DNA of 64,000 bases from Candidatus Tayloriibacteriota bacterium (GTDB lineage: Bacteria; Patescibacteriota; Minisyncoccia; Phycocordibacterales; PALSA-1337). The notes beneath the pieces were generated by a model. It had not been told where the DNA came from. It made no database searches and saw only the letters and a list, made by a program, of their open reading frames with translations. Below, in pieces: positions 4,029 to 56,640 of the stretch. Positions within the stretch are counted from its first letter, which is position 1; each line of letters starts with the position of its first letter. Location: positions 7,994 to 71,993 of the forward strand of contig CALRAJ010000002.1 of assembly GCA_943350765.1 (NCBI GenBank), given 5' to 3'. Made by a program: the position numbers and the translations under genes.

Positions 4029-4058
4029 TACCATCTACCACACAAGTACTTTTTTCCA

Positions 4059-4092
4059 ATCCCCGGAATTTTCTACTGAAAATTCCGGGGAT
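4059..4092. terminator. Stem-loop ATCCCCGGAATTTT-loop-AAAATTCCGGGGAT after the DUF805 gene
   Basis: 14-bp perfect inverted repeat; a T-run precedes rather than follows it, so terminator function is uncertain. Confidence 0.3.
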
Positions 4093-5839
4093 TACCGTTC
4101 AGTAATTTCATCAGAAAGTGGTTCTCAGGTTGTTTTGTCCACCAGAGGTGTAGTAATGAAGCCAAAAAAGAGACTTTGGAGCCCATTTCTCCCACCAGAG
4201 GCGTAGAAGTAACCCTCTAAAAGGGGGTTCGCAGGCGGGTAGCCGAGACTTCAGGAATTTTCTAGTAAGAAAATATCCGTACCCTTTTAGAGGGTTTACT
4301 TCGTAACCCTTGACTATTATAACCATTCATATATACTACTCCTACCCTAATCGAAACAGGGGTGTTCTTTGAAACTGTGCCAAAATAAGTTATGCATTAA
4401 GAACGTAGTTTAAACGAAGTCGTTTAATACGTGCAAGTCCCTGTAAAGTATTCAACAAGCATATTTTACGGGTGAGTCTAAAAAGTTTAGGAAAGTAGAA
4501 TCTTCGCAGTCGGCGCCCTTCTTTGTTGCAAGCTCCGTTCGCTTCCGCAATGTATTAGTATACATTTTGGTCGCGATACTCGCTCGCGCCTCGAAGTGCA
4601 TCCAACTACAAAGATTCTATGACACACATTTATAACAATAATTTCAAGAGCATAGACAAACTCTAATACAAAGCTTCGGCGGAGTAGTAATTATTTGAAA
4701 ATCAAAGTATAGAATATTTTTCTTTATTTTGTTCCGTTCATTTAATTTAGAGTTTGATTCTAGCTCAGGATGAACGCTGGCGGCGTGGGTAAGGCATGCA
4801 AGTCAAACGGCCCGCAAGGGCAGTGGCGAACGAGGTAGTACAAAGTAGGTAACGACCCTGGAAGTCAGGAATAACTAGTCGAAAGATTAGCTAATACTTG
4901 ATGGTCTCGCGAGAGTAAAGATTTATCGCTTCCAGATCGGCCTGCTCGATATCAGCTAGTTGGTAGGGTAATGGCCTACCAAGGCAATGACGTCTAGGGG
5001 AGCTGAGAGGCTGACCCCCACCGATGGTACTGAGATACGGACCATACACCTACGGGTGGCCGCAGTCGAGAATCTTCCGCAATGGACGCAAGTCTGACGG
5101 AGCGACGCCGCGTGATCGATGAAGTTCTTCGGAACGTAAAGATCTTTTATGAGGGAGAAAGTTTATTGATAGTACCTCAAGAATAAGGGGTTGCTAAACT
5201 CGTGCCAGCAGCAGCGGTAATACGAGTGCCCCAAGCGTTATCCGGAATTATTGGGCGTAAAGGGTGTGTAGGTGGTTTTGTTAGTCTCTTGTTAAACCTC
5301 CCGGCTCAACCGGGAAGATGCAAGGGAAACGGCATAACTAGAGGATGCGAGGGGTCTGTGGAACTCATGGTGTAGCGGTGAAATGCGTTGATATCATGGG
5401 GAACACCAAAAGCGAAGGCAGCAGACTGGAGCACTCCTGACACTGAAACACGAAAGCGTGGGTAGCGAATGGGATTAGATACCCCAGTAGTCCACGCCCT
5501 AAACGATCTTCTCTGGTTTTTCGGAGTATCGACCCTCTGAGAGACGAAGCTAACGCGTTAAGAGAAGCGCCTGGGTAGTACGACCGCAAGGTTAAAACTC
5601 AAAGAAATAGACGGGGACTTGCACAAGCGGTGGATCATGTGGTTTAATTCGACGATAAACGAAGAACCTTACCAAGATTTGAAACCTAGTTGAAGACAAG
5701 AGGAAACTTTTGTCGCCGCAAGGCAATTAGGCAGGTGATGCATGGCCGTCGTCAGTTCGTGGTTTGAATTGTTCCCTTAAGTGGGGTAACGAACGCAACC
5801 CTCGTTGCCTGTTATATATGTCAGGCGAGACTGCCCTCG

Positions 5840-6136: not shown

Positions 6137-6198
6137 CCGGAATCGCTAGTAATCGCAGGTCAGCTATACTGCGGTGAATACGTTCTCAAGTCTTGTAC

Positions 6199-6615
6199 TC
6201 AAAATTAAAAGCGCCAGGCAGGTGCTGAATCTAGGTTGTTAAAATCAACCCTTTCCGAATACAATACAGGAGAGTAGTGAACGGGTAATCATTTGGTCGC
6301 GAGGCTAAGTGATGAAGGATCCTAGTAGCAAAAAGCAGCCCATTCAAAAAAGAGGGATACGACCCATATGGTGAGTTATGGGGAAGTATCGCAAATAACC
6401 TCGAATGGGATGCATGGAATAGAATCAGTACTGACCCTTGGGAGATCTCCTGATATGAAAAACAATCGAAGTATCAGTAGAAGTCAGCTGCGTCGTAGTA
6501 CCCATTTTTTATGATGGGGAAGGACAAAACCGATAGTGTTAAAACTATTGGACTCGCGTAGTGCGGGAAATCCGCTCGCTACGTGGGAACGCAAAATGTT
6601 GTTTCATTATTGCAA
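6199..6615 (+). other. About 415-nt ORF-less insertion in the 16S decoding-centre region (putative self-splicing intron)
   Basis: Interrupts the universally conserved CTTGTAC|ACACCGCCCGTCA block (E. coli about 1397-1400). No ORF over 60 aa; must be removed for a functional 16S. Boundaries are approximate. Confidence 0.5.
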
Positions 6616-6938
6616 TCCGCCCGTCAACTCAAGGGAGTTGGGAATACCCGAAATCTCTGCCTAGCAGGGCCTAAGGTAAGCTCAATGACAGGGAGTAAGT
6701 CGTAACAAGGCACGGGTAGCGGAAGCTGCTCGTGGATTATTTCAATTTGAACACGGTGTACAGTTTCTTCGGAATCTGTATTACCTTAAATGGTCTTTTG
6801 TCATTATTTTGGTGATAGGGTAATGGTTCTGCAACCTCAAATGCGAACCCTCAGCCATGAGAGAGGAATGGCGCAGGTCGGTATCCTCTATAGAGATACT
6901 GACCGGTGAACGGAACAAAATAAAGAATGATATTAAAG

Positions 6939-6997: not shown

Positions 6998-7143
6998 ACC
7001 CCAAATTACAAAATGCCTTTCTCGGCATATCTTTTAAAAGGCACGGATAAATTTCTGCTGAAATTTTCCTCAAGTCTCGACTACCCGTCTTGCGAAGTCC
7101 TTTTAAAAGATACACCTGCGACAGCATTTCGTAATTTGGGGTA
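6998..7143. mobile_element. MITE-like palindromic element, copy 1 (TIR CCCCAAATTACAAAATGC ... GCATTTCGTAATTTGGGG)
   Basis: About 145-bp element with 16-18-bp terminal inverted repeats and an internally self-complementary core (GGCATATCTTTTAAAAGG / CCTTTTAAAAGATACACC). Homologous copies at 9316, 32702, 38892 and 52181. Confidence 0.7.
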
Positions 7144-7400: not shown

Positions 7401-7500
7401 CTTAAAAGAACTAATTTGTGACTGTTTGGTACGGATTTTATAACTAAATTAAATCTCATACCTAGTATGGATCGTTCTCGCTAGTCGTCTAATCTAGATC

Positions 7501-7539
7501 GATGGCTCACTGGTTTTACTTTTAAACCAGTGAGCCATC
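7501..7539. repeat. Hairpin repeat, GATGGCTCACTG family (GATGGCTCACTGGTTT-TACTTTT-AAACCAGTGAGCCATC)
   Basis: Perfect 16-bp stem. Paralogous copies at 40398-40440 and 44061-44103 differ by a compensatory G/C swap (tgGttt/aaaCca versus tgCttt/aaaGca). Confidence 0.6.
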
Positions 7540-7594
7540 AACATAGATTGTGTAGGGAGGTTACTTTCAGAGGCTTTTGAAATAGGCTTCTACT

Positions 7595-9229: not shown

Positions 9230-9251
9230 TTTGGAAAATTGAAAAAGAAAA

Positions 9252-9285
9252 CCCCGCGGCGTACTCGCCGCGGGGTTTTCTTTTG
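9252..9285. terminator. Rho-independent terminator after pyk (CCCCGCGGCG-TACT-CGCCGCGGGG plus TTTTCTTTT)
   Basis: 10-bp GC stem, TACT loop and T-run 23 nt after the pyk stop. Confidence 0.65.
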
Positions 9286-9315
9286 TTGTCTAAAATATGG
9301 TATTATTATCTTTAA

Positions 9316-9457
9316 TTCGAATTACAAAATACTTTTCTTGGCATACCTTTTAAAGAGCACGAGTATTTTCTTGCTAGAAAATCTCTCAGTCTCGGCTACC
9401 CGCCTTGCGAAGTCTCTTTAAAAGATACGCCTACGACAGTATTTTGTAATTCTGGGT
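9316..9457. mobile_element. MITE-like palindromic element, copy 2
   Basis: CGAATTACAAAATAC ... GTATTTTGTAATTCTGGG ends and the same internal core as copy 1; fills the pyk-murD spacer. The annotated 60-aa ORF 9239-9421 lies inside it. Confidence 0.7.
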
Positions 9458-13732: not shown

Positions 13733-14881
13733 TTGATTTGTATGACTGAATCGGCAAAAAAAGTATTGATTTTTTCTATCGCCTATTACCCACATTTTAT
13801 TGGTGGTGCGGAAGTGGCGGTAAAGGAGATTACAGATAGATTAGTTGATGATTTTGAATTTCACATGATTACCTTGGGTGCAAAAGGGGATAAAAGTGAT
13901 GAAAGAATCAGCAATGTCTTTGTTCATCGTGTGGGGAGTGTTTCAACTATTTCAAAATATCTATTTCCATTTATAGGCTTTTTTAAAGCCGTTGATTTAC
14001 ACAAAAAACACCACTTTCAGATAACTTGGTCTATTATGGCAAATTATGCTGGTTTTGCTGGGCTATTTTTTAAATATTTGAAGCCAGAAGTAACATCCGT
14101 CTTAACCCTTCAGGAGGGTGATCCGATATTGTATATCAAAAAACGAGTTGGTGTCCTGTACCCTTTGTTTAAAAAGATATTTACCAAAGCAGATCGTATC
14201 CATGCTATTTCAAATTATCTTGCTGATTGGGCAAGAGATATGGGAGCTAAAGGTCGTGTTGATGTTGTGCCAAATGGAGTGGATATTTCACTTTTTTCAA
14301 AAGCAATTTCGGACGATGAGAAAAATTCACTTGCTCGTGAATTGGGAAAAAAGACCGAAGATATTTTCCTGATCACCACTTCTCGCTTGGTTATTAAAAA
14401 TGGAGTGGGGGATATTATAAAATCACTCCAGTATCTACCCACCAATGTAAAATTATTGATAGTAGGTAATGGAGTGCTAGAAGATACCTTAAAGGCTTCC
14501 GTAGATGCCCACAAGCTCTCAGGTAGGGTTTTGTTTGTTGGTTTTATACATCATGCCGATTTACCTAAATATCTGGCTATAAGCGATATATTCGTAAGAC
14601 CAAGCCTGTCTGAGGGGATGGGTAACTCATTTATTGAGGCAATGTCGGCAGGTATACCCGTAGTCGCTACTCCAGTAGGTGGAATAGTTGATTTTTTGGT
14701 TGATCGCGAAACAGGTCTTTTTTGTCAGGTTTCGGACCCAAAAAGTATTGCGGAATGCGTGAAATTACTTTTGTCTGATAAGATGCTATCTACTCGACTG
14801 GTCGAAAATGCTCAAAAAATGGTTTTAAATAATTATGATTGGTCTAGGATCGCTATTTTGATGCGTGAAGTGATCCGATAG
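13733..14881 (+). CDS. Glycosyltransferase family 4 (GT-B)
   Basis: C-terminal GT4 signature SLSEGMGNSFIEAMSAGIPVVATPVGG...VDRETG. Confidence 0.8.
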   Translation: MICMTESAKKVLIFSIAYYPHFIGGAEVAVKEITDRLVDDFEFHMITLGAKGDKSDERISNVFVHRVGSVSTISKYLFPFIGFFKAVDLHKKHHFQITWSIMANYAGFAGLFFKYLKPEVTSVLTLQEGDPILYIKKRVGVLYPLFKKIFTKADRIHAISNYLADWARDMGAKGRVDVVPNGVDISLFSKAISDDEKNSLARELGKKTEDIFLITTSRLVIKNGVGDIIKSLQYLPTNVKLLIVGNGVLEDTLKASVDAHKLSGRVLFVGFIHHADLPKYLAISDIFVRPSLSEGMGNSFIEAMSAGIPVVATPVGGIVDFLVDRETGLFCQVSDPKSIAECVKLLLSDKMLSTRLVENAQKMVLNNYDWSRIAILMREVIR

Positions 14882-32701: not shown

Positions 32702-32878
32702 ATAGCCCAAATTAGGAAACTCTTTCTCGGCGTATCTTTCTAGGAGTACGAATAAATTTCTGGTGAAATTTATCTCAGGTCTCGACTCCCGTCCTGCGCC
32801 GTCTACAGGAACACATCATCTACCGATGTGAAAGCCCCCTATAAAGATGTGTCTTCGACGAATTTCCTAATTTGGGCT
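32702..32878. mobile_element. MITE-like element, copy 3 (variant; TIR TAGCCCAAATTAGGAAA ... TTTCCTAATTTGGGCTA)
   Basis: Same TIR core and internal CTTTCTCGGCGTATC / CCGATGTGAAAG segments as the remnant at 52132. AT-rich insert inside the GC-rich island. Confidence 0.6.
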
Positions 32879-33029
32879 ATTTGCCTTGGTTGTTTACTGT
32901 GGATTATTGTGTATATGACATGTGGTCATTCTAATACCTTGAGTGCATCCAAGCTATTGAACCATTACCCGGTGGTATTGACTTTATTTGCAAATGGGTG
33001 TATAATAGGTTTTGGTCTGTTGGCGGTAG

Positions 33030-33647
33030 GTGCGGTCAAACAAGCTCTCTTATATGAAAAAACAATACTCGGAAACGCTCCTAGCGAAAGCTCGGAAGAT
33101 CAAGGCGGTTGTTCTCGACTGCGACGGCACTCTGACTGACAATACGGAGGTGACCGGTCTCGACGCGCCGTCTGCACACGGTTTGCTGAAGAGGCGTAGT
33201 CACTACGACGGTCAGGGCGTGTCCCTAATTCGAGCTGTGGGAATCCCTGTTGCGATAATTACGGGTGAAAAAGGTCCCGGCGCTCAGATGATTACCAAGC
33301 TCGTTGAAAGGTGGAACGGTCTGCCCTCTGTTAAAAATCGTGCATGGATACAAGTCGCTCTCTTCACCGGATATGCCGGCGAGGAAAAAGTTCTTAAGCT
33401 CCGCCAGTGGCTGAAGACAAACCAACTCACTTCTGAAGACTGCGCCGTGATGGGGGATGACCTCGTCGATGTGCCGATGCTTCGCGCAGTCGGATTTCGT
33501 GCCTGCCCGATTACCGCAGAAGAGGTAGTGCGGGAGATGGCCGACTTCATCAGCGACCGTCCTGCCGGCTACGGTGCAGTGCGTGATCTGGCAAACCTCA
33601 TCCTCACAGCTCGTGGTATTGATCCCACGACCCTGCCGACCAAGTAG
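33030..33647 (+). CDS. HAD-IIIA KdsC-like sugar-acid phosphate phosphatase
   Basis: VVLDCDGTLTD (DxDGT), ITG, MGDDLVDVPMLRAVGFRACPITAEE, AGYGAVRDLANLILTARG; classic KdsC/KDN-9-P phosphatase pattern. Confidence 0.75.
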   Translation: MRSNKLSYMKKQYSETLLAKARKIKAVVLDCDGTLTDNTEVTGLDAPSAHGLLKRRSHYDGQGVSLIRAVGIPVAIITGEKGPGAQMITKLVERWNGLPSVKNRAWIQVALFTGYAGEEKVLKLRQWLKTNQLTSEDCAVMGDDLVDVPMLRAVGFRACPITAEEVVREMADFISDRPAGYGAVRDLANLILTARGIDPTTLPTK

Positions 33648-38721: not shown

Positions 38722-38891
38722 TTACCATGTGAGTACTAACAAAGGTGTTAGTGCCAAACGAATGACTGCGTAAGTCCCCGCCTCGGCGGGGGTTTGCGTT
38801 TATGGCTAAACCAAATTTACTAATTTGGTCGCCCGAACATTTTTTACTAAAAATGTTTTAGGGGAAGTCTTCTGTCTCCAGTGTCTCGAAT

Positions 38892-39103
38892 CCCAAATCT
38901 CTTTCTCGGCACGACCTTTTTCATGCACGAGTATTTCTATGGTAAGAAATCTCTCAAATCTCGCGTGCCATGCCGTAGCCTTTGGCGAAGGCAGGGCTGC
39001 CCATGCACATGAAACTTGCTAGTTTCAGTATCTTCCTCGCCTCCGCTCGTCGACTTCCGAACCCTCTTAAAAAGACATACCTTCGACGAATTTTGCAATT
39101 TTA
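38892..39103. mobile_element. MITE-like element, diverged/expanded copy 5
   Basis: Shares CACGAGTATTTCT-TGGTAAGAAATCTCTCAA and the 3' end CTTAAAAAGACATACCTTCGACGAATTTTGCAATTTT with the other copies; carries an about 70-nt internal insertion. Confidence 0.45.
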
Positions 39104-39295
39104 AATACAAATTCCATTCGGTTGGTGGGGAGAACTTAAATTTTTATTTAACTGGGGTATATTAGTTTGCTGTAGAAAGATTTATTATGGTATACTGATT
39201 GTAATATATTGTTCCAAGTTGTGGTCGACGACTGTACTCACAATAGTCATTTATTTGGAGCTCACACCCGTCGACCAGAATTTGGCGTAATATCT

Positions 39296-40363: not shown

Positions 40364-40377
40364 CCCAAAATATCTTC

Positions 40378-40442
40378 AACGGCTCACTGGTCTGTAGTCG
40401 ATGGCTCACTGCTTTTTAATACAAAGCAGTGAGCCATCGACC
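40378..40442. repeat. GATGGCTCACTG-family repeat, left boundary of the R-M island (half-site plus 18-bp hairpin)
   Basis: CAACGGCTCACTGGTCTGTAGTCGATGGCTCACTGCTTT-TTAATAC-AAAGCAGTGAGCCATCGACC; near-identical to 44018-44105. Confidence 0.65.
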
Positions 40443-40570
40443 TAAAATATAGCTATAATAAAGGGTTCAATTAGTATTGGTAGGTATATAGGTAAGCGAT
40501 GTACAAGACTATATATTTCTACAAGCAAAAATGATAGAATGGATATATGTGAATGATTTAAAAAAACACT

Positions 40571-41842
40571 ATGAGTAAAGATATAATTACACTATTAAAT
40601 AAAACAAAGATTGATCACTCATGGTCTTTTTCTGATAAGACAAGAAAGGACACGGCGTATATTACGCATGGTTATCATCGCTACCCAGCAAAGTTTATTC
40701 CTCAAATAGTCTCTCGTTTGGCAGAAAAATACACCCGAGAAGGAGATTTTATCGTTGATCCATTTGGTGGGTGTGGAACGACACTCGTTGAATCAAAAGT
40801 TATGGGGCGACCATCAATTGCTGTTGATATTAACCCTGTTGCAGTTTTGATAACAAAAGCAAAAATCACCCCAATTAACCCCGATAAAATTGAGAAAGAA
40901 TTTGCAACACTTCAGAAGAGATTAGAAACTTATAACGAAGATACAAAAGTCAAAGCACATGAACATGAACGGATAGATTATTGGTTCAAACCCGAAAATA
41001 AAAGGAAGCTCGCCTTTATCTTTACCGAAATTTCAAAAATTAAAGATCAGGATGTTCAAGACTTTTTCTTTTGTGGATTTTCAAATATTCTCAAAAATTG
41101 TTCAATATGGTTACAAAAAAGCAATAAGCCGACGAGAGATTTTGAAAAGAAACCGTCAGATCCAATTAAAACTTTTTTTAAGCAAATAAAAATGATGTTG
41201 CGTGGCAACACACGACTATTTGAATTATTATCAGAGAAAGGTTATTTGAAAATTCCAAGCAAGGTAGTTTGTACGGACGCAAGGACAATTCCAGCAAAAG
41301 ACAATAGTATTAGCTTGATCGTTACCTCTCCGCCATATGTTACCTCATACGAATATGCCGATTTACACCAACTTACTGCATTATGGCTAGAATATACAAA
41401 GGATTTGAGTGATTTCAGAAAGCGTTTTATTGGCACTTCATATCACAGTAAGAAAGATTTGATACTCAATAGTTCAATCGCAGAAAGTATCCGAAAAGAA
41501 TTGCTGGAAATAGACAAAAAGACTGCCGAAGAAGTCTCAACATACTTCAGCGAAATGAATCAGGTTTTTGTTGAGATGGAAAGGATACTCAAGAAAGGAG
41601 GAAAAACGTGTATTGTTGTCGGGAACACGAGCCTGAAAGGTGTTAAAATACTAAACGCCGAGGTTTTTGTTGAACAATTACAAAATTTAGGACTGAAAGT
41701 CACGGATGTTATCAAAAGGGAAATACCTTCAAAAAATTTACCCTCAGTGAGAGATAAAAAAACAGGCAAGTTTGCAGCGATAACGGATAAAAATAAAGTT
41801 TCCGCATATCCAACAGAATATATATTAGTAATGCAAAAATAA
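40571..41842 (+). CDS. DNA methyltransferase (N4-cytosine/N6-adenine family, SPPY type)
   Basis: HRYPAKFIPQIV...GDFIVDPFGGCGTT (SAM-binding motifs X-I), catalytic SPPY (LIVTSPPYVTSYEYAD). Confidence 0.8.
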   Translation: MSKDIITLLNKTKIDHSWSFSDKTRKDTAYITHGYHRYPAKFIPQIVSRLAEKYTREGDFIVDPFGGCGTTLVESKVMGRPSIAVDINPVAVLITKAKITPINPDKIEKEFATLQKRLETYNEDTKVKAHEHERIDYWFKPENKRKLAFIFTEISKIKDQDVQDFFFCGFSNILKNCSIWLQKSNKPTRDFEKKPSDPIKTFFKQIKMMLRGNTRLFELLSEKGYLKIPSKVVCTDARTIPAKDNSISLIVTSPPYVTSYEYADLHQLTALWLEYTKDLSDFRKRFIGTSYHSKKDLILNSSIAESIRKELLEIDKKTAEEVSTYFSEMNQVFVEMERILKKGGKTCIVVGNTSLKGVKILNAEVFVEQLQNLGLKVTDVIKREIPSKNLPSVRDKKTGKFAAITDKNKVSAYPTEYILVMQK

Positions 41843-41846
41843 AAAT

Positions 41847-42530
41847 ATGACCAAACAAGATATTGTTAATTTATATGAGAGGTATAAGAAATTACATGGA
41901 AATAATGCCTTCAAACATATTTCTGCAATTTTAATTGAGGCAAAAGGACTTCACAACAAAGATTTTTTGAAAAATCCAACCCCAAAAGGTGATCATGAGC
42001 AATCATGGAAGGGTTTCAAAGGTAGTGCTTTAGAGACATTAATTGATCATGTCTTAAAAGAAGAAGTAAATAGTTTGGGGTTAAATATTGTATCAGGAAA
42101 AAAGTTTGAAAAAACTAAGCCAGAGAATTTATCGATAGAATTGCAGACTGTTAAGAGAAATCTTTCTATTGATTTTGGTGAATTTGGTTTTCATATACCA
42201 GATGTTGATCTAGTAATATATAATCCAAAAACCTTCAAGGTCGTTGCTGTTTTATCAAGCAAGTCGACTTTGCGAGAAAGAATAGCCCAATCAGGTTATT
42301 GGAATATAAAAATTAAGAACTACGATTTAACAAAACATATTAAGGTGTTTTTTGTAAGCCCAGATGAAGACGGTAATTTTTCTCTCGGAAGAAATCTTGG
42401 AAAGAGTAGAGCGATTGTGGAAACAGATCTTGATGGAGCATATGTTATGACAGAGCAATCCGTTAGAGAAAGTGAGAAAGTCAAAACATTTGATAAATTT
42501 ATTGATGATCTTAAAAAACTTTTGAAATAA
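41847..42530 (+). CDS. Hypothetical protein, candidate restriction endonuclease by context
   Basis: 227 aa between two DNA MTases; possible PD..D/ExK-like residues (IPDVDLVIY...SSK) but not convincing. Confidence 0.3.
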   Translation: MTKQDIVNLYERYKKLHGNNAFKHISAILIEAKGLHNKDFLKNPTPKGDHEQSWKGFKGSALETLIDHVLKEEVNSLGLNIVSGKKFEKTKPENLSIELQTVKRNLSIDFGEFGFHIPDVDLVIYNPKTFKVVAVLSSKSTLRERIAQSGYWNIKIKNYDLTKHIKVFFVSPDEDGNFSLGRNLGKSRAIVETDLDGAYVMTEQSVRESEKVKTFDKFIDDLKKLLK

Positions 42531-42534
42531 AACT

Positions 42535-42933
42535 ATGGAACAATTACTTTTACAACTTGGGTTAGGAATTGCTTCAAACACGATGTATGATTTTTTGAAG
42601 GATTTTTTCACTAAAAATTATAAACCTGATAGATTACAATTACAAAATAAGCTAGCTTCTTTTCTTGATGTTCAAAACGCCAACATAATAGCCGATAAAA
42701 TTATTACTTTTTTGGCTCAGAATGGAGATATAAGAATTAATGGAACGAGTATTTACGCTAATGATTCAATTTCTATGTCTTCCACAAAAAACACAAAATT
42801 TACTTTTGGAAATAATAGTTCCAGTACAACGAAAAATACAAAAATAGAAGTTGGTAATGGTGCTTTCATTCAAGGACAAGGCTGTGCAGGAATAAAACAA
42901 AATGACGATGGCAGTATTAATCTTTTTACTTAA
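42535..42933 (+). CDS. Hypothetical small protein with Asn/Ser/Thr-rich C-terminus
   Basis: 132-aa ORF tightly packed (4-bp spacers) inside the R-M island. Confidence 0.35.
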   Translation: MEQLLLQLGLGIASNTMYDFLKDFFTKNYKPDRLQLQNKLASFLDVQNANIIADKIITFLAQNGDIRINGTSIYANDSISMSSTKNTKFTFGNNSSSTTKNTKIEVGNGAFIQGQGCAGIKQNDDGSINLFT

Positions 42934-42936
42934 ATT

Positions 42937-43605
42937 ATGGAAATTGAATCAACAACACTTTGGGATTTTCCAAGACAGAATTATGGAGATACCCCACACG
43001 GAAACAATAAATATAATGGCGTTACCCCTGCGGCAGTAATTTGGAATTTGCTACAACGATACACCAAAGAGGGCGACTTGGTCGTGGATCCGATGTGCGG
43101 AAGTGGAACGACTATCGATGTTGCCAATGAATTGAAGCGTAAGGTTATTGGGTATGATCTTAATGTAACAAGACCAGAAATAATCAAAAATGATTCTCGT
43201 AAAATTCCGCTTGCTGACAATTCCGTTGATTTTATTTTCATTGATTCGCCGTATTCGGACAATATAAACTATTCCGATAATAAGGAGTGTATAGGAAAAA
43301 TATCTTGCGAGAAAACGGAATTTTATGATGAGCTAGAAAAAACCGCTAGTGAAATCGCAAGGATTTTGAAGCCCGGCAAAGCGATTGGTTGGGTAATCGC
43401 TGATCAATGGGTAAAGAAGAAATTTACGCCTGTTGGTTTTTTAATGTGGCAGAGATTAGAAAAATATTTTGAAACAGTCGATATGATTTGCCTCACTCGT
43501 CATAATCAAACATCAAATACGGGAATTTGGCACGAACGAGCAAGACAGTATAACTTTTATCTCAGAGGATTCAAGTATCTATTCATAATGAGAAAAGTTA
43601 AGTAA
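42937..43605 (+). CDS. DNA methyltransferase (short N4/N6 family, second MTase of the island)
   Basis: PAAVIWNLLQRYTKEGDLVVDPMCGSGTT (motifs X-I) and FIFIDSPYSD (motif IV variant); paralogous N-terminus to the MTase at 40571. Confidence 0.7.
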   Translation: MEIESTTLWDFPRQNYGDTPHGNNKYNGVTPAAVIWNLLQRYTKEGDLVVDPMCGSGTTIDVANELKRKVIGYDLNVTRPEIIKNDSRKIPLADNSVDFIFIDSPYSDNINYSDNKECIGKISCEKTEFYDELEKTASEIARILKPGKAIGWVIADQWVKKKFTPVGFLMWQRLEKYFETVDMICLTRHNQTSNTGIWHERARQYNFYLRGFKYLFIMRKVK

Positions 43606-43992: not shown

Positions 43993-44017
43993 CCCGAAGC
44001 AGAGCCATTTTATGAAA

Positions 44018-44105
44018 CGATGGCTCACTGGTCTGTAGTCGATGGCCCAGTGGTGTTTGGTCGATGGCTCACTGCTTTATAATACAAAGCAGTGAGCCAT
44101 CGACC
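44018..44105. repeat. GATGGCTCACTG-family repeat, right boundary of the R-M island (two half-sites plus 18-bp hairpin)
   Basis: CGATGGCTCACTGGTCTGTAGTCGATGGC...TCGATGGCTCACTGCTTT-ATAATAC-AAAGCAGTGAGCCATCGACC. Confidence 0.65.
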
Positions 44106-44272
44106 TCGTCTGGACTAAATTAAGAAGCTTTTTAGGTATCGGACAACTGATTAATTTTTAAAACAAAGTTTAGTCTCGTTCTATCCCCACGGCAAGCCGT
44201 CGGGGTATTCTCCACAATTAAAATAAAAATCCCCACGAGTGTGAGGAGTCAGGCTGTCGGATTGAGGAGGAA

Positions 44273-50767: not shown

Positions 50768-50856
50768 ATGTAAAAAAATGGCTTGATCTATAGTTAGTAA
50801 GATTTGTCGGTTGTTCAAGACCTTACCCTAAAGCTAGGTTATATAATCACAAAAAT

Positions 50857-51020
50857 TCAAAGGCTAAACGCTAGCGTTTAGCCTTTGAATTTTTGACCCA
50901 ATAGCCGATTTTGAGCCTAATTTTGCCAAACCGTGGCTAAAAATCATTCATACTTCCTTTTTGAACATCTAGCTCTGTATAGCCACGCTAAACGGCTAAA
51001 CTCATGAGTTTAGCCGTTTA
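50857..51020. repeat. Two perfect 34-bp palindromes of the AACGGCTAAAC family
   Basis: TTCAAAGGCTAAACGCTAGCGTTTAGCCTTTGAA (50857-50890) and CTAAACGGCTAAACTCATGAGTTTAGCCGTTTAG (50987-51020), both with palindromic 4-bp centres. Confidence 0.65.
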
Positions 51021-52131: not shown

Positions 52132-52324
52132 GGAATTAGAAAATTCTTTCTCGGTCTGCCGATGTGAAAGTCCTTTAAAACCCCAAATTACGAAATACCT
52201 TTCTTGGCATATCTTTTAAAAGGCACGAGTATTTCTTTGGTAAGAAATCTCTCAAGTCTCAGCTACCCGCTTCCGAAGTCCTTTTAAAAGATACGCCTGC
52301 GACGGTATTCTGTAATTTGGGGTT
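52132..52324. mobile_element. MITE-like element: internally deleted remnant (52132-52182) abutting full copy 4 (52181-52324)
   Basis: Remnant GGAATTAGAAAATTCTTTCTCGG...CCGATGTGAAAGTCCTTTAAAA equals the ends of the copy-3 variant joined by a deletion. The full copy starts CCCCAAATTACGAAATACC and ends GTATTCTGTAATTTGGGG. Confidence 0.65.
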
Positions 52325-52376
52325 TTAAAACACATATTCTCAACAGATTTTCTCATTTCAGTCAGTATATGCTAAA

Positions 52377-55731: not shown

Positions 55732-56181
55732 ATGAAAATCTACTTTGCCACCGATCACGCAGGGTTTGAACTCAAAAATGTACTCGTCGAGTATGTGAAG
55801 AGTCTTGGTTTTGAAGTGGAAGATTTCGGAGCAAAAAGTTTTGACAAGGAGGATGATTATCCAAATTTTATTAAACTAGCAGGGCAAGCGGTTTCGGCTG
55901 ATCCGGTAAATTCAAAAGCGATTGTACTGGGTGGCTCAGGGCAGGGTGAAGCTATAGTCTCAAACCGTTTTCACGGTGTACGAGCAGTGGTGTATTATGG
56001 TGGCAATTTAGAAACTATAAAACTTTCTCGAGAGCATAACGATGCCAACATTCTCTCTCTCGGTGCACGATTTTTGAATGTGGATGAAGCCAGGGAAGCT
56101 GTAAAACTTTGGTTGGACACGCCTTTTACTAGCGATGAGCGCCACTTGCGAAGAATTCAAAAAATTGAACAAATAAATTGA
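55732..56181 (+). CDS. rpiB: Ribose-5-phosphate isomerase B
   Basis: MKIYFATDHAGFELKN...; RpiB/LacAB fold motifs. Confidence 0.85.
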   Translation: MKIYFATDHAGFELKNVLVEYVKSLGFEVEDFGAKSFDKEDDYPNFIKLAGQAVSADPVNSKAIVLGGSGQGEAIVSNRFHGVRAVVYYGGNLETIKLSREHNDANILSLGARFLNVDEAREAVKLWLDTPFTSDERHLRRIQKIEQIN

Positions 56182-56190
56182 GTTAAAATT

Positions 56191-56615
56191 CTCCCTTTGC
56201 AAAGGGAGTACCCGTAGGGGGAGGGATTTGTATGAAATTAGTCTACGGTCAAAATTTAAAACCTCTTGCTCAAAACCTCAGGAAGTCAGGTAATCTTTCG
56301 GAGGTTTTGCTCTGGAATGAGATAAAATCGAAAAAACTGGGTGTTCAATTTTTAAGACAGAAACCTATAGATAAATACATCGTTGATTTTTATTGTAATG
56401 AACTCAGTCTTGCTATAGAGATAGATGGTGTGAGTCACGATGTTAAGGTTGATGCCGACACCAGAAGGCAAAATGTGTTAGAATCTAAGGGTGTACGATT
56501 TATTAGGTTCAGTGATTCAGATGTTAAGTGTAATCTAGAAAGTGTAGTAAGGGAAATCAAGGAATTTATCGAGAGTAAAAATCCCTCCCTTTCAGGTGCT
56601 CCCTTTAAAAAGGGA
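56191..56615. mobile_element. DUF559 endonuclease cassette bounded by about 39-bp imperfect terminal inverted repeats
   Basis: Left CTCCCTTTGCAAAGGGAGTACCCGTAGGGGGAGGGATTT; right AAATCCCTCCCTTTCAGGTGCTCCCTTTAAAAAGGGAG. Each end is a hairpin plus an 11-bp GGGAGGGATTT / AAATCCCTCCC inverted repeat. Confidence 0.5.
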
Positions 56616-56621
56616 GAATAA
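56232..56621 (+). CDS. DUF559 (Vsr/MutH-like fold) endonuclease-domain protein
   Basis: YIVDFYCNELSLAIEIDGVSHD, the diagnostic DUF559 block; the C-terminus reads through the right TIR. Confidence 0.7.
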   Translation: MKLVYGQNLKPLAQNLRKSGNLSEVLLWNEIKSKKLGVQFLRQKPIDKYIVDFYCNELSLAIEIDGVSHDVKVDADTRRQNVLESKGVRFIRFSDSDVKCNLESVVREIKEFIESKNPSLSGAPFKKGE

Positions 56622-56640
56622 TAACTAATAACTATCAACC

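Follow-up and report, generated by a model that had tools for sequence, protein, structure and literature searches.

Introduction

What is a hairpin-forming repeat doing in spacer after spacer of a patescibacterial genome, and is it mobile DNA, a structured RNA or a piece of gene-control machinery? The question is raised by a 64,000-nt stretch of contig CALRAJ010000002.1 (assembly GCA_943350765.1) of Candidatus Tayloriibacteriota bacterium, called the window below, for which a preliminary description, made from the sequence alone, had proposed a family of roughly 145-bp elements resembling miniature inverted-repeat transposable elements (MITEs). Genomes of the candidate phyla radiation (CPR), or Patescibacteria, are among the smallest and most streamlined, and are commonly said to hold little mobile DNA or regulatory RNA. 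We find that the copies are dispersed, non-coding palindromic repeats behaving as mobile DNA, and that the family is defined by a conserved folded core, not by terminal repeats. One of its branches sits beside promoters of the translation machinery. The family has apparently not been described before, and its members are probably small mobile elements of Patescibacteria, MITE-like in behaviour and mobilised in trans.

A conserved core rather than conserved ends

When the copies are aligned side by side, the centre is conserved and the ends are not. The centre is a nearly invariant, asymmetric and non-palindromic apical core of 57 nt, composed in order of ACGRRUA, a hairpin (P3), YCUCAAGUCUC, a second hairpin (P4) and (U)UGCGAAG. 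P3 has 10 bp, one bulged U and a loop of UGCU or UGGU, and P4 reads GGC-UACCC-GCC. A stem of about 18 bp, P2, encloses the core, and outside it about half of the copies carry an internal loop whose two sides are conserved but not complementary (5′ YTCTTTCTC, 3′ YTTCGACGAG). An outer stem, P1, of 8-28 bp is present in about 60%: at least 8 bp of pairing beyond the model were found in 42 of 69 copies, against 10% of controls with mismatched flanks. The element ends were set by stepwise helix extension, as those from minimum-free-energy folding overshot into random pairing of the flanks. Terminal inverted repeats had been proposed as the mark of the family, and this does not hold: CCCCRAATTACRAAAT occurs among window copies only in c1, c2 and c5, with a variant in c3.

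The structure drawn by hand and that predicted by RNAalifold from 57 copies contain the same P2, P3 and P4. Paired cells amount to 95.2%, against 71% after shuffling and 40-55% when the partners are slid, and 27 of the 32 pairs have changed on both sides. G-U pairs account for 0.8% of cells and are not commoner than other mismatches; the complementarity is thus Watson-Crick in character, and tells neither which strand folds nor whether the folded molecule is RNA or DNA. An excess of A-C over G-U mismatches (77 vs 31), considered as an indicator of the folded strand, collapses to three fixed alignment columns, so it is inherited and uninformative on this point.

Copies in the window

The five copies and the remnant of the preliminary description lie within a few bases of where it had put them (Table 1). 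Its inventory lacked a sixth copy, c6, on the other strand, and the deletion remnant that it gave as 52132-52182 is indeed an older deleted copy, but one split in two by c5. The core pattern has five matches in the window, where 100 shuffles give an expectation of 0.00, nhmmer returns E-values of 1e-32 to 1e-45 for c1-c5, and the covariance model gives the six copies 40-102 bits, while everything else in the window, at 24 bits or less, consists of generic or terminator hairpins. The similarity hence extends beyond AT tracts. Folding is likewise far better than that of shuffled sequences for c1, c2, c3 and c5 (z-scores of -6.3 to -8.4; c1 and c5 both -8.4, c3 -6.3), although c4 as a whole folds no better than its shuffles (z -1.4).

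Table 1. Coordinates of the repeat copies, of the promoter adjoining c6 and of the shared-stem hairpins in the window (bits are covariance-model scores)
Feature	Positions	Strand	Description	Score	Surroundings
c1	6998-7143	+	canonical full-length: P1, conserved internal loop, P2, 57-nt core	99.3 bits	3′ of the terminator behind the 16S gene, 5′ of tRNA-Ile
c2	9316-9457	+	degenerate 5′ end	97.3 bits	pyk terminator and a -10-like box on one side, murD start codon on the other
c3	32702-32880	+	variant with conserved 35-nt two-hairpin insert after P4	62.1 bits	begins right behind the stop codon of an SDR gene
c4	38885-39106	+	diverged, ~80-nt insert after P4, decayed 5′ arm	nhmmer E 3.6e-32; 39.8 bits	
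c5	52180-52323	+	canonical	102 bits	within the older copy
c6	4201-4309	-	conserved core, other enclosing stem AACCCTCTAAAAGGG / CCCCTTTTAGAGGGTT	nhmmer E 1.8e-13; 86.3 bits	adjoins the promoter below
Older copy, 5′ part	52132-52179	+	P1 arm, internal-loop motif, fragment of insert-variant core		
Older copy, 3′ part	52324-52359	+	remaining P2 arm, internal-loop motif TCTCAAC, P1 arm AGATTTTCTCATTTC		
Predicted promoter TTGACT-16-TATACT	4310-4337	+	sigma-70-type	10/12 consensus matches (promoter scan)	
Shared-stem hairpins	7499-7545, 40376-40445, 44017-44107; also 1127-1175, 50840-50888, 50972-51020				

The copies, 105-225 bp in size, occupy spacers, often from the stop codon onward or between a -10 box and the start codon, and contain no conserved open reading frame (ORF); those at 9239-9421 and 32828-33139, called spurious in the preliminary description, are not common to different copies. 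The claim that one copy lies in a GC-rich island is borne out by c3, which falls within the region at 30-36 kb whose GC content is 45-53% against about 38% in the GC profile. A role as terminator, also put forward for the copies, finds no support at c1 and c2, both of which follow canonical terminators of their own. A motif seen beside several copies, GGGTGGTGG, is not enriched in the window (8 matches, 5.0 expected).

Three subfamilies recur in different genomes. The first has (TA)CCCCRAATTACRAAAT termini and comprises c1, which is bordered by TA on either side, c2, c5 and members at loci L031, L064, L067 and L148. The second carries the conserved 35-nt two-hairpin insert after P4 and comprises c3 and copies at L013, L023, L049 and L067. 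The third is adjacent to promoters and includes c6. The genome FW305_bin.8 (L012) holds, at 6182-6560 between rpsG and rpsS, a tandem pair of elements, the second of them an insert variant with a further insertion.

Presence and absence at orthologous spacers

Mobility is supported by four orthologous spacers, obg|gatB, pyk|murD, murD-3′ and DUF87|GT4, which vary in occupancy among close relatives. The obg|gatB spacer is an empty 25 nt in L069, holds one intact element between GATTGG repeats in L068, and in the window contains the old element of L068, recognisable by its matching arms and flank and bearing an internal deletion, together with c5, which alignment to L068 places within the 3′ P2 arm of the older copy. 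Nucleotide identity weakly pairs L068 with L069 (83-84%, against 79-81%); if these two are indeed the closest pair, then either L069 lost its element cleanly or the site was hit twice. At pyk|murD the window (c2) and L148 each carry an element and L150 and L151 carry none; the spacers of the latter two can be aligned with the occupied ones as far as the insertion point. At murD-3′, L148 and L150 have an element and the window and L151 do not; at DUF87|GT4, L148 has one, the window has none and L150 has an unrelated DUF559-type repeat instead. Relatives lacking the element at orthologous spacers, whose absence would have suggested a conserved regulatory RNA motif in the preliminary description, thus exist at obg|gatB and at pyk|murD. 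The empty sites are not palindromic, and insertion into pre-existing palindromes was accordingly rejected.

Target-site duplications, which had been proposed as something to look for, accompany some copies. Exact ones are TATAATA (L040, read from the alignment), TAAAATA (L046), GATTGG (L068) and TGAAGG (L032), the two 7-bp duplications coming from two copies of one subfamily in one genome. TTTAAA(A) borders c5 at both ends, a duplication of about 6-7 bp. An automated scan of 69 copies found duplications of at least 6 bp at three, where 0.1 would be expected.

How recent are these movements? Recent transposition, as had been suggested, applies at most to c5, which was found in three independent assemblies; the sites of c1 and c6 are shared with relatives whose MurD is about 83% identical. 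In addition, c2 and its positional counterpart in L148 differ in their P3 and P4 variants, those of L148 matching c1 of the window instead, which points to conversion from copy to copy or to a site hit more than once.

A subfamily beside ribosomal promoters

The predicted sigma-70-type promoter listed in Table 1 abuts c6 on the opposite strand, lies 29 nt from its core and leads outward to the 16S rRNA gene, in whose leader, downstream of the promoter, we read a boxA-like UGUUCUUUGAAAC. The same arrangement recurs in all nine copies of the c6 type: 27-30 nt from the core, the other strand has a TTGACN hexamer, and a TAnnnT box (TATACT-like) comes 16-17 nt behind it. The genes behind these promoters are 16S (window, L148, L028), 23S (L020, L064), rpsP, rpsS-rplV-rpsC, infA-rpsM-rpsK-rpsD and secE-nusG-rplK. 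The stem sequences between core and promoter vary among the loci and the spacing is constant; in the window, L148 and L150 the promoter-adjacent copies are also conserved in position. Judging from this arrangement, the promoter-fixed lineage is probably part of the promoter region, as an insulator or an upstream regulatory element, and its copies may be a domesticated branch of the family or, conversely, its ancestral form.

Do the elements bring promoters of their own? A promoter-like ATATGAAT..TATAMT upstream of c1, c2 and c6 was considered in this role and rejected: at c2 it is also found in the empty sites and so belongs to murD, and the one at c6 is the opposite-strand promoter of 16S.

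A second hairpin module, CAC-AGGAAAUUUU-loop-AAAAUUUCCU-GUG, stands beside promoter-adjacent copies in the window (4055-4096) and, on the distal side, in L010, L020, L022, L049 and L064. GCUCCGYGAC stands ahead of it, and both its stem and its loop are similar to those of P3 in the core. A U-run follows in some loci only, so that it is not clearly a terminator.

Orientation was scored by GC skew; a tally against genes from a crude ORF caller (35 vs 23) is weak and was judged noisy. The skew of the whole window is positive, and all five P1-type copies have their top strand on that G-rich strand. Counted over all loci, 43 copies have their top strand on the strand that is locally G-rich, 13 have it on the C-rich one and 10 are ambiguous; the c6-type subfamily behaves in the opposite way, all eight scored copies being on the C-rich strand. 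The 43:13 bias could reflect co-orientation with genes or with replication, which are inseparable on pieces of 8 kb.

Distribution

The core pattern was scanned against one genome per species in 185,579 species. It matched at 64 loci, of which 63 lie in 22 species genomes of Patescibacteria, all metagenome-assembled genomes (MAGs), with up to 13 matches in a single genome; the only other match, L037 in an Acidobacteriaceae genome, has no enclosing stem and is taken as a chance match. The host MAGs are labelled, as deposited, Taylor-, Zambryskii- and Vogelbacteria, Paceibacterota, Minisyncoccia and Parcubacteria, and Saccharibacteria in some third-party assemblies. The window itself comes from a metagenome-assembled patescibacterial genome, and its relatives include 'Candidatus Taylorbacteria bacterium AH-24oct19-230' (16S 96.3% identical) and 'Patescibacteria group bacterium FW305_bin.8', the MurD of the window being 82-83% identical to those of both. 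Viral contigs gave no match to the core pattern.

The covariance model finds 95 copies in the 588 kb of matched loci and only 3 in 383 kb around obg from 80 other CPR contigs, which points to a patchy distribution. Where the family occurs it can be dense, with 6 copies per 64 kb in the window and 5 per 21 kb in a relative, roughly one intergenic spacer per ten kb. The family, whose density was first seen as unexpected in a streamlined genome, is no peculiarity of this one: 22 species genomes share it.

Across both strands of the window, no element matched an Rfam 15 family at the gathering threshold, and searches of c1, c5 and c6 at E up to 10 returned only microRNA and lncRNA models at chance level. 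Hammerhead, twister and pistol ribozymes, retron msr/msd, SRP, 6S, 5S and Y RNA were rejected as identities because both strands had been scanned against Rfam. The literature library that was searched, by topic and by core sequence, yielded no description of the family.

How might the elements move?

Variable occupancy of orthologous spacers, the nesting of c5 and the occasional duplications are together what one would expect of mobile DNA, and the explanation that we consider the most probable, while holding it with real reserve, is that these are small, non-coding, hairpin-forming mobile elements of Patescibacteria, MITE-like in behaviour and mobilised in trans. In such a mechanism an enzyme encoded elsewhere would make a staggered cut at A+T-rich sites, and this enzyme or a host factor would recognise a folded single strand consisting of the core and of the ends joined through P1 and P2. 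Recognition of the folded core and the paired arms would keep the centre conserved and leave the ends free to change as long as they remain complementary. Copies would then be kept or tolerated because they sit in spacers and are mostly co-oriented with the G-rich coding strand, and one lineage has become fixed 27-30 nt upstream of the -35 box in promoters of rRNA and ribosomal-protein operons.

Several observations weigh against this explanation. First, 57 of the 69 copies have no target duplication, and another 8 match over 3 bp only, as expected by chance. Second, terminal sequences vary from copy to copy, across the family and even inside one genome, with pairing alone preserved, which is the opposite of a classical MITE; ELA422 and SRP286056_co1_693, for example, have copies with identical cores whose outer stems are all different. 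Third, neither the genes of the window nor the neighbourhoods fetched from relatives, about 60 kb, yielded a transposase domain or other candidate mobilising gene, so that the search for a matching transposase suggested at the outset came back empty in the DNA covered, and no long element bounded by shared termini was present among the fetched loci. Fourth, the orthologous murD-3′ copies in L148 and L150 are set apart by two adjacent changes, which are the same in either arm, so the stem was maintained in place, by selection or by arm-to-arm correction; this suggests a host-level function, or such correction, rather than pure selfishness. Finally, the conservation of the core across many species is unexplained by transposition alone. 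With no transposase found, most copies lacking duplications and stems compensated in situ, this is not a textbook MITE.

Alternative explanations

Could the folded strand itself be the transposition substrate? The elements might be moved as folded single-strand DNA by an HUH/Y1 transposase, as in IS200/IS605, REP-RAYT and REPINs, or by a tyrosine recombinase, as in attC, and not by a DDE enzyme acting on terminal repeats. The ends conserved in pairing and not in sequence, the essentially Watson-Crick pairing with its paucity of G-U, the missing duplications at most copies and the strand bias, with the five P1-type window copies on G-rich, leading-strand sequence, would all fit. Yet the exact duplications of 7 bp (L040, L046) and 6 bp (L068) point to staggered cuts, the ends show neither a GTAG/CGTC-type tag nor a conserved target tetranucleotide, the 8-kb GC skew is confounded with coding-strand composition, and no Y1 or RAYT gene was seen near any copy, though no systematic search was made. 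We rate this route as unlikely, though it is the main rival.

A structured non-coding RNA family is a doubtful candidate. The copies would then be host genes and not mobile DNA, whether as small RNA genes or as cis-acting stabilisers in untranslated regions, RNase III sites or protein platforms. The strong covariation in P2, P3 and P4 around an invariant asymmetric core, the folding z-scores of -6 to -8, the stems kept in place between orthologous copies, the position of copies directly behind stop codons or between promoter and start codon, and the co-orientation of 77% of the 56 scored copies with the G-rich strand are what such a family would lead one to expect. Presence and absence at orthologous sites, the nested copy and the target duplications are not; moreover, most copies have no room for, or consistent sign of, a promoter of their own, about a quarter run antisense to the genes around them, G-U pairs show none of the enrichment of typical RNA families, and no Rfam family matches.

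It is also conceivable, if improbable, that the module upstream of rRNA and ribosomal-protein operon promoters is primary, as a regulator-binding or insulating DNA or RNA structure held at constant spacing from the -35 box, and that the dispersed copies are its secondary, decaying duplicates. The constant placement of all nine c6-type copies next to translation-machinery promoters, in spite of differing stems, and their positional conservation among relatives speak for such an origin. The dispersed copies, however, are the majority and have an architecture of their own (P1 and the internal loop) without a -35 box, and the function of the promoters and of the module alike is predicted from sequence.

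Chance or low-complexity A+T similarity, toward which only the A+T richness of the stems points, can be set aside with near certainty in view of the shuffle and covariance-model results, the recurrence in 22 genomes and a core that is itself not low-complexity.

A broader possibility, speculative and to our minds with a small share of the probability, is that the core is an unrecognised, Patescibacteria-specific structured nucleic-acid domain. Its primary role would be at ribosomal promoters, where, kept 27-30 nt from the -35 box, it might be the target of a lineage-specific regulator or, as RNA or an extruded hairpin, serve as an insulator, and it would later have spread by MITE-like transposition. 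Mobile element and control element of ribosome synthesis would then be one and the same.

Comparison with known repeats

Small bacterial repeats are covered by general reviews (PMC2229807, PMC3184786); the comparison with the Correia elements below is one of described properties. Closest in behaviour are the orphan palindromic repeats, namely Correia, bcr1, ERIC, BOX/RUP and SMAG, which are small, intergenic, hairpin-forming, sometimes promoter-bearing and without a known transposase. Correia elements (CREE/NEMIS) of Neisseria are, like the present family, intergenic multicopy palindromes, of 100-155 bp and often flanked by TA, for which no transposase is known. Co-transcription with adjacent genes and a capacity to supply or create promoter elements, both properties of Correia elements, may be shared here. 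They differ in having conserved 26-bp terminal repeats and a less constrained centre, the reverse of the structured, invariant centre in Patescibacteria. The two are not known to be related in sequence, and the patescibacterial family spans many species-level lineages.

The bcr1 elements of the Bacillus cereus group, ERIC/IRU, BOX/RUP and SMAG are likewise small, mobile-looking repeats with stable hairpins, in some of which compensatory changes have been reported; their effects on neighbouring transcripts depend on orientation, and bcr1 has short A+T-rich target duplications as well. Unlike the elements described here, these families are not known to carry the 57-nt core, are each confined to a genus or family, and are not known to stand in a fixed arrangement with promoters of ribosomal operons.

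Papers on REP sequences and REPINs with their RAYT transposases include PMC3116915, PMC2817692 and PMC3733652. These repeats are also hairpin-forming, non-autonomous, recognised by structure, strand-biased and without target duplications. Their units, however, are of 20-40 nt with a GTAG/CGTC tag at the stem foot and a variable loop, whereas here the apex is conserved and some copies have duplications of 6-7 bp; when the stem feet of our copies were examined for such a tag, no common one appeared, the apex and not the foot being conserved.

In attC sites and the ends of IS200/IS605, a folded single strand is recognised and the sequence of the paired arms is free. But attC has a conserved stem base (R boxes, GTTRRRY) and lies in cassette arrays, and IS200/IS605 has two different subterminal hairpins and no terminal inverted repeats. 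The termini of our elements, CCCCRAATTAC / GTAATTYGGGG or unrelated to these, contain no R boxes (RYYYAAC / GTTRRRY), and their flanking genes are housekeeping ones (pyk, murD, obg, gatB) with no cassette array. Mobile promoters borne by insertion sequences or MITEs resemble the c6 type in that the repeat abuts a -35 hexamer driving a neighbouring gene; they differ from it in that the arrangement here is restricted to rRNA and ribosomal-protein operons, at a constant 27-30 nt from a structured core.

Significance

Given its turnover between close relatives and a domain conserved across many species, the family can serve as a marker of genome dynamics in Patescibacteria. On the practical side, the repeat causes breaks in MAG assemblies and gives rise to spurious ORFs there, and the covariance model is ready for annotation. 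The coupling of one subfamily to ribosomal promoters offers a rare, testable handle on the control of ribosome synthesis in uncultured, regulator-poor bacteria. Lastly, the inverted logic of an element whose centre is conserved and whose ends are free but paired poses a question: what recognises it?

Other features of the window

The 16S gene has, relative to a 96%-identical Taylorbacteria 16S (L028), a 415-nt insertion at 6202-6616, which divides the conserved GUACAC / ACCGCCCGUCA region close to the decoding centre, contains no long ORF and includes a weak match, of 39.6 bits against a gathering score of 35, to the Rfam model group-II-D1D4-1 at 6447-6525. The 3′ tail of the gene (6735-6750) reads GGAUUAUUUCAAUU, not GGAUCACCUCCUU, and the canonical CCUCC anti-Shine-Dalgarno is thus absent; L028 aligns through this region at 98.7%.

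A gene for a 129-aa DUF559/Vsr-like endonuclease (56232-56621) lies within 49-nt inverted repeats (TTCTCCCTTTGCAAAGGGAG...) at 56181-56626, and in L150 the DUF87|GT4 spacer is filled, at about 14490-14660, by an element that shares these ends but has no gene and measures about 170 nt. The pair looks like a second, unrelated mobile element with a miniature derivative of its own.

Two families of intergenic hairpins with shared stems, TCGATGGCTCACTG...CAGTGAGCCATCGA and TAAACGGCTAAAC...GTTTAGCCGTTTA, are probably repeated terminators (Table 1). The GGCTCACTG hairpin repeats at 40397-40445 and 44056-44104 enclose a restriction-modification cluster (40571-43605) that encodes two N6_N4 methyltransferases and a BsaWI-like endonuclease.

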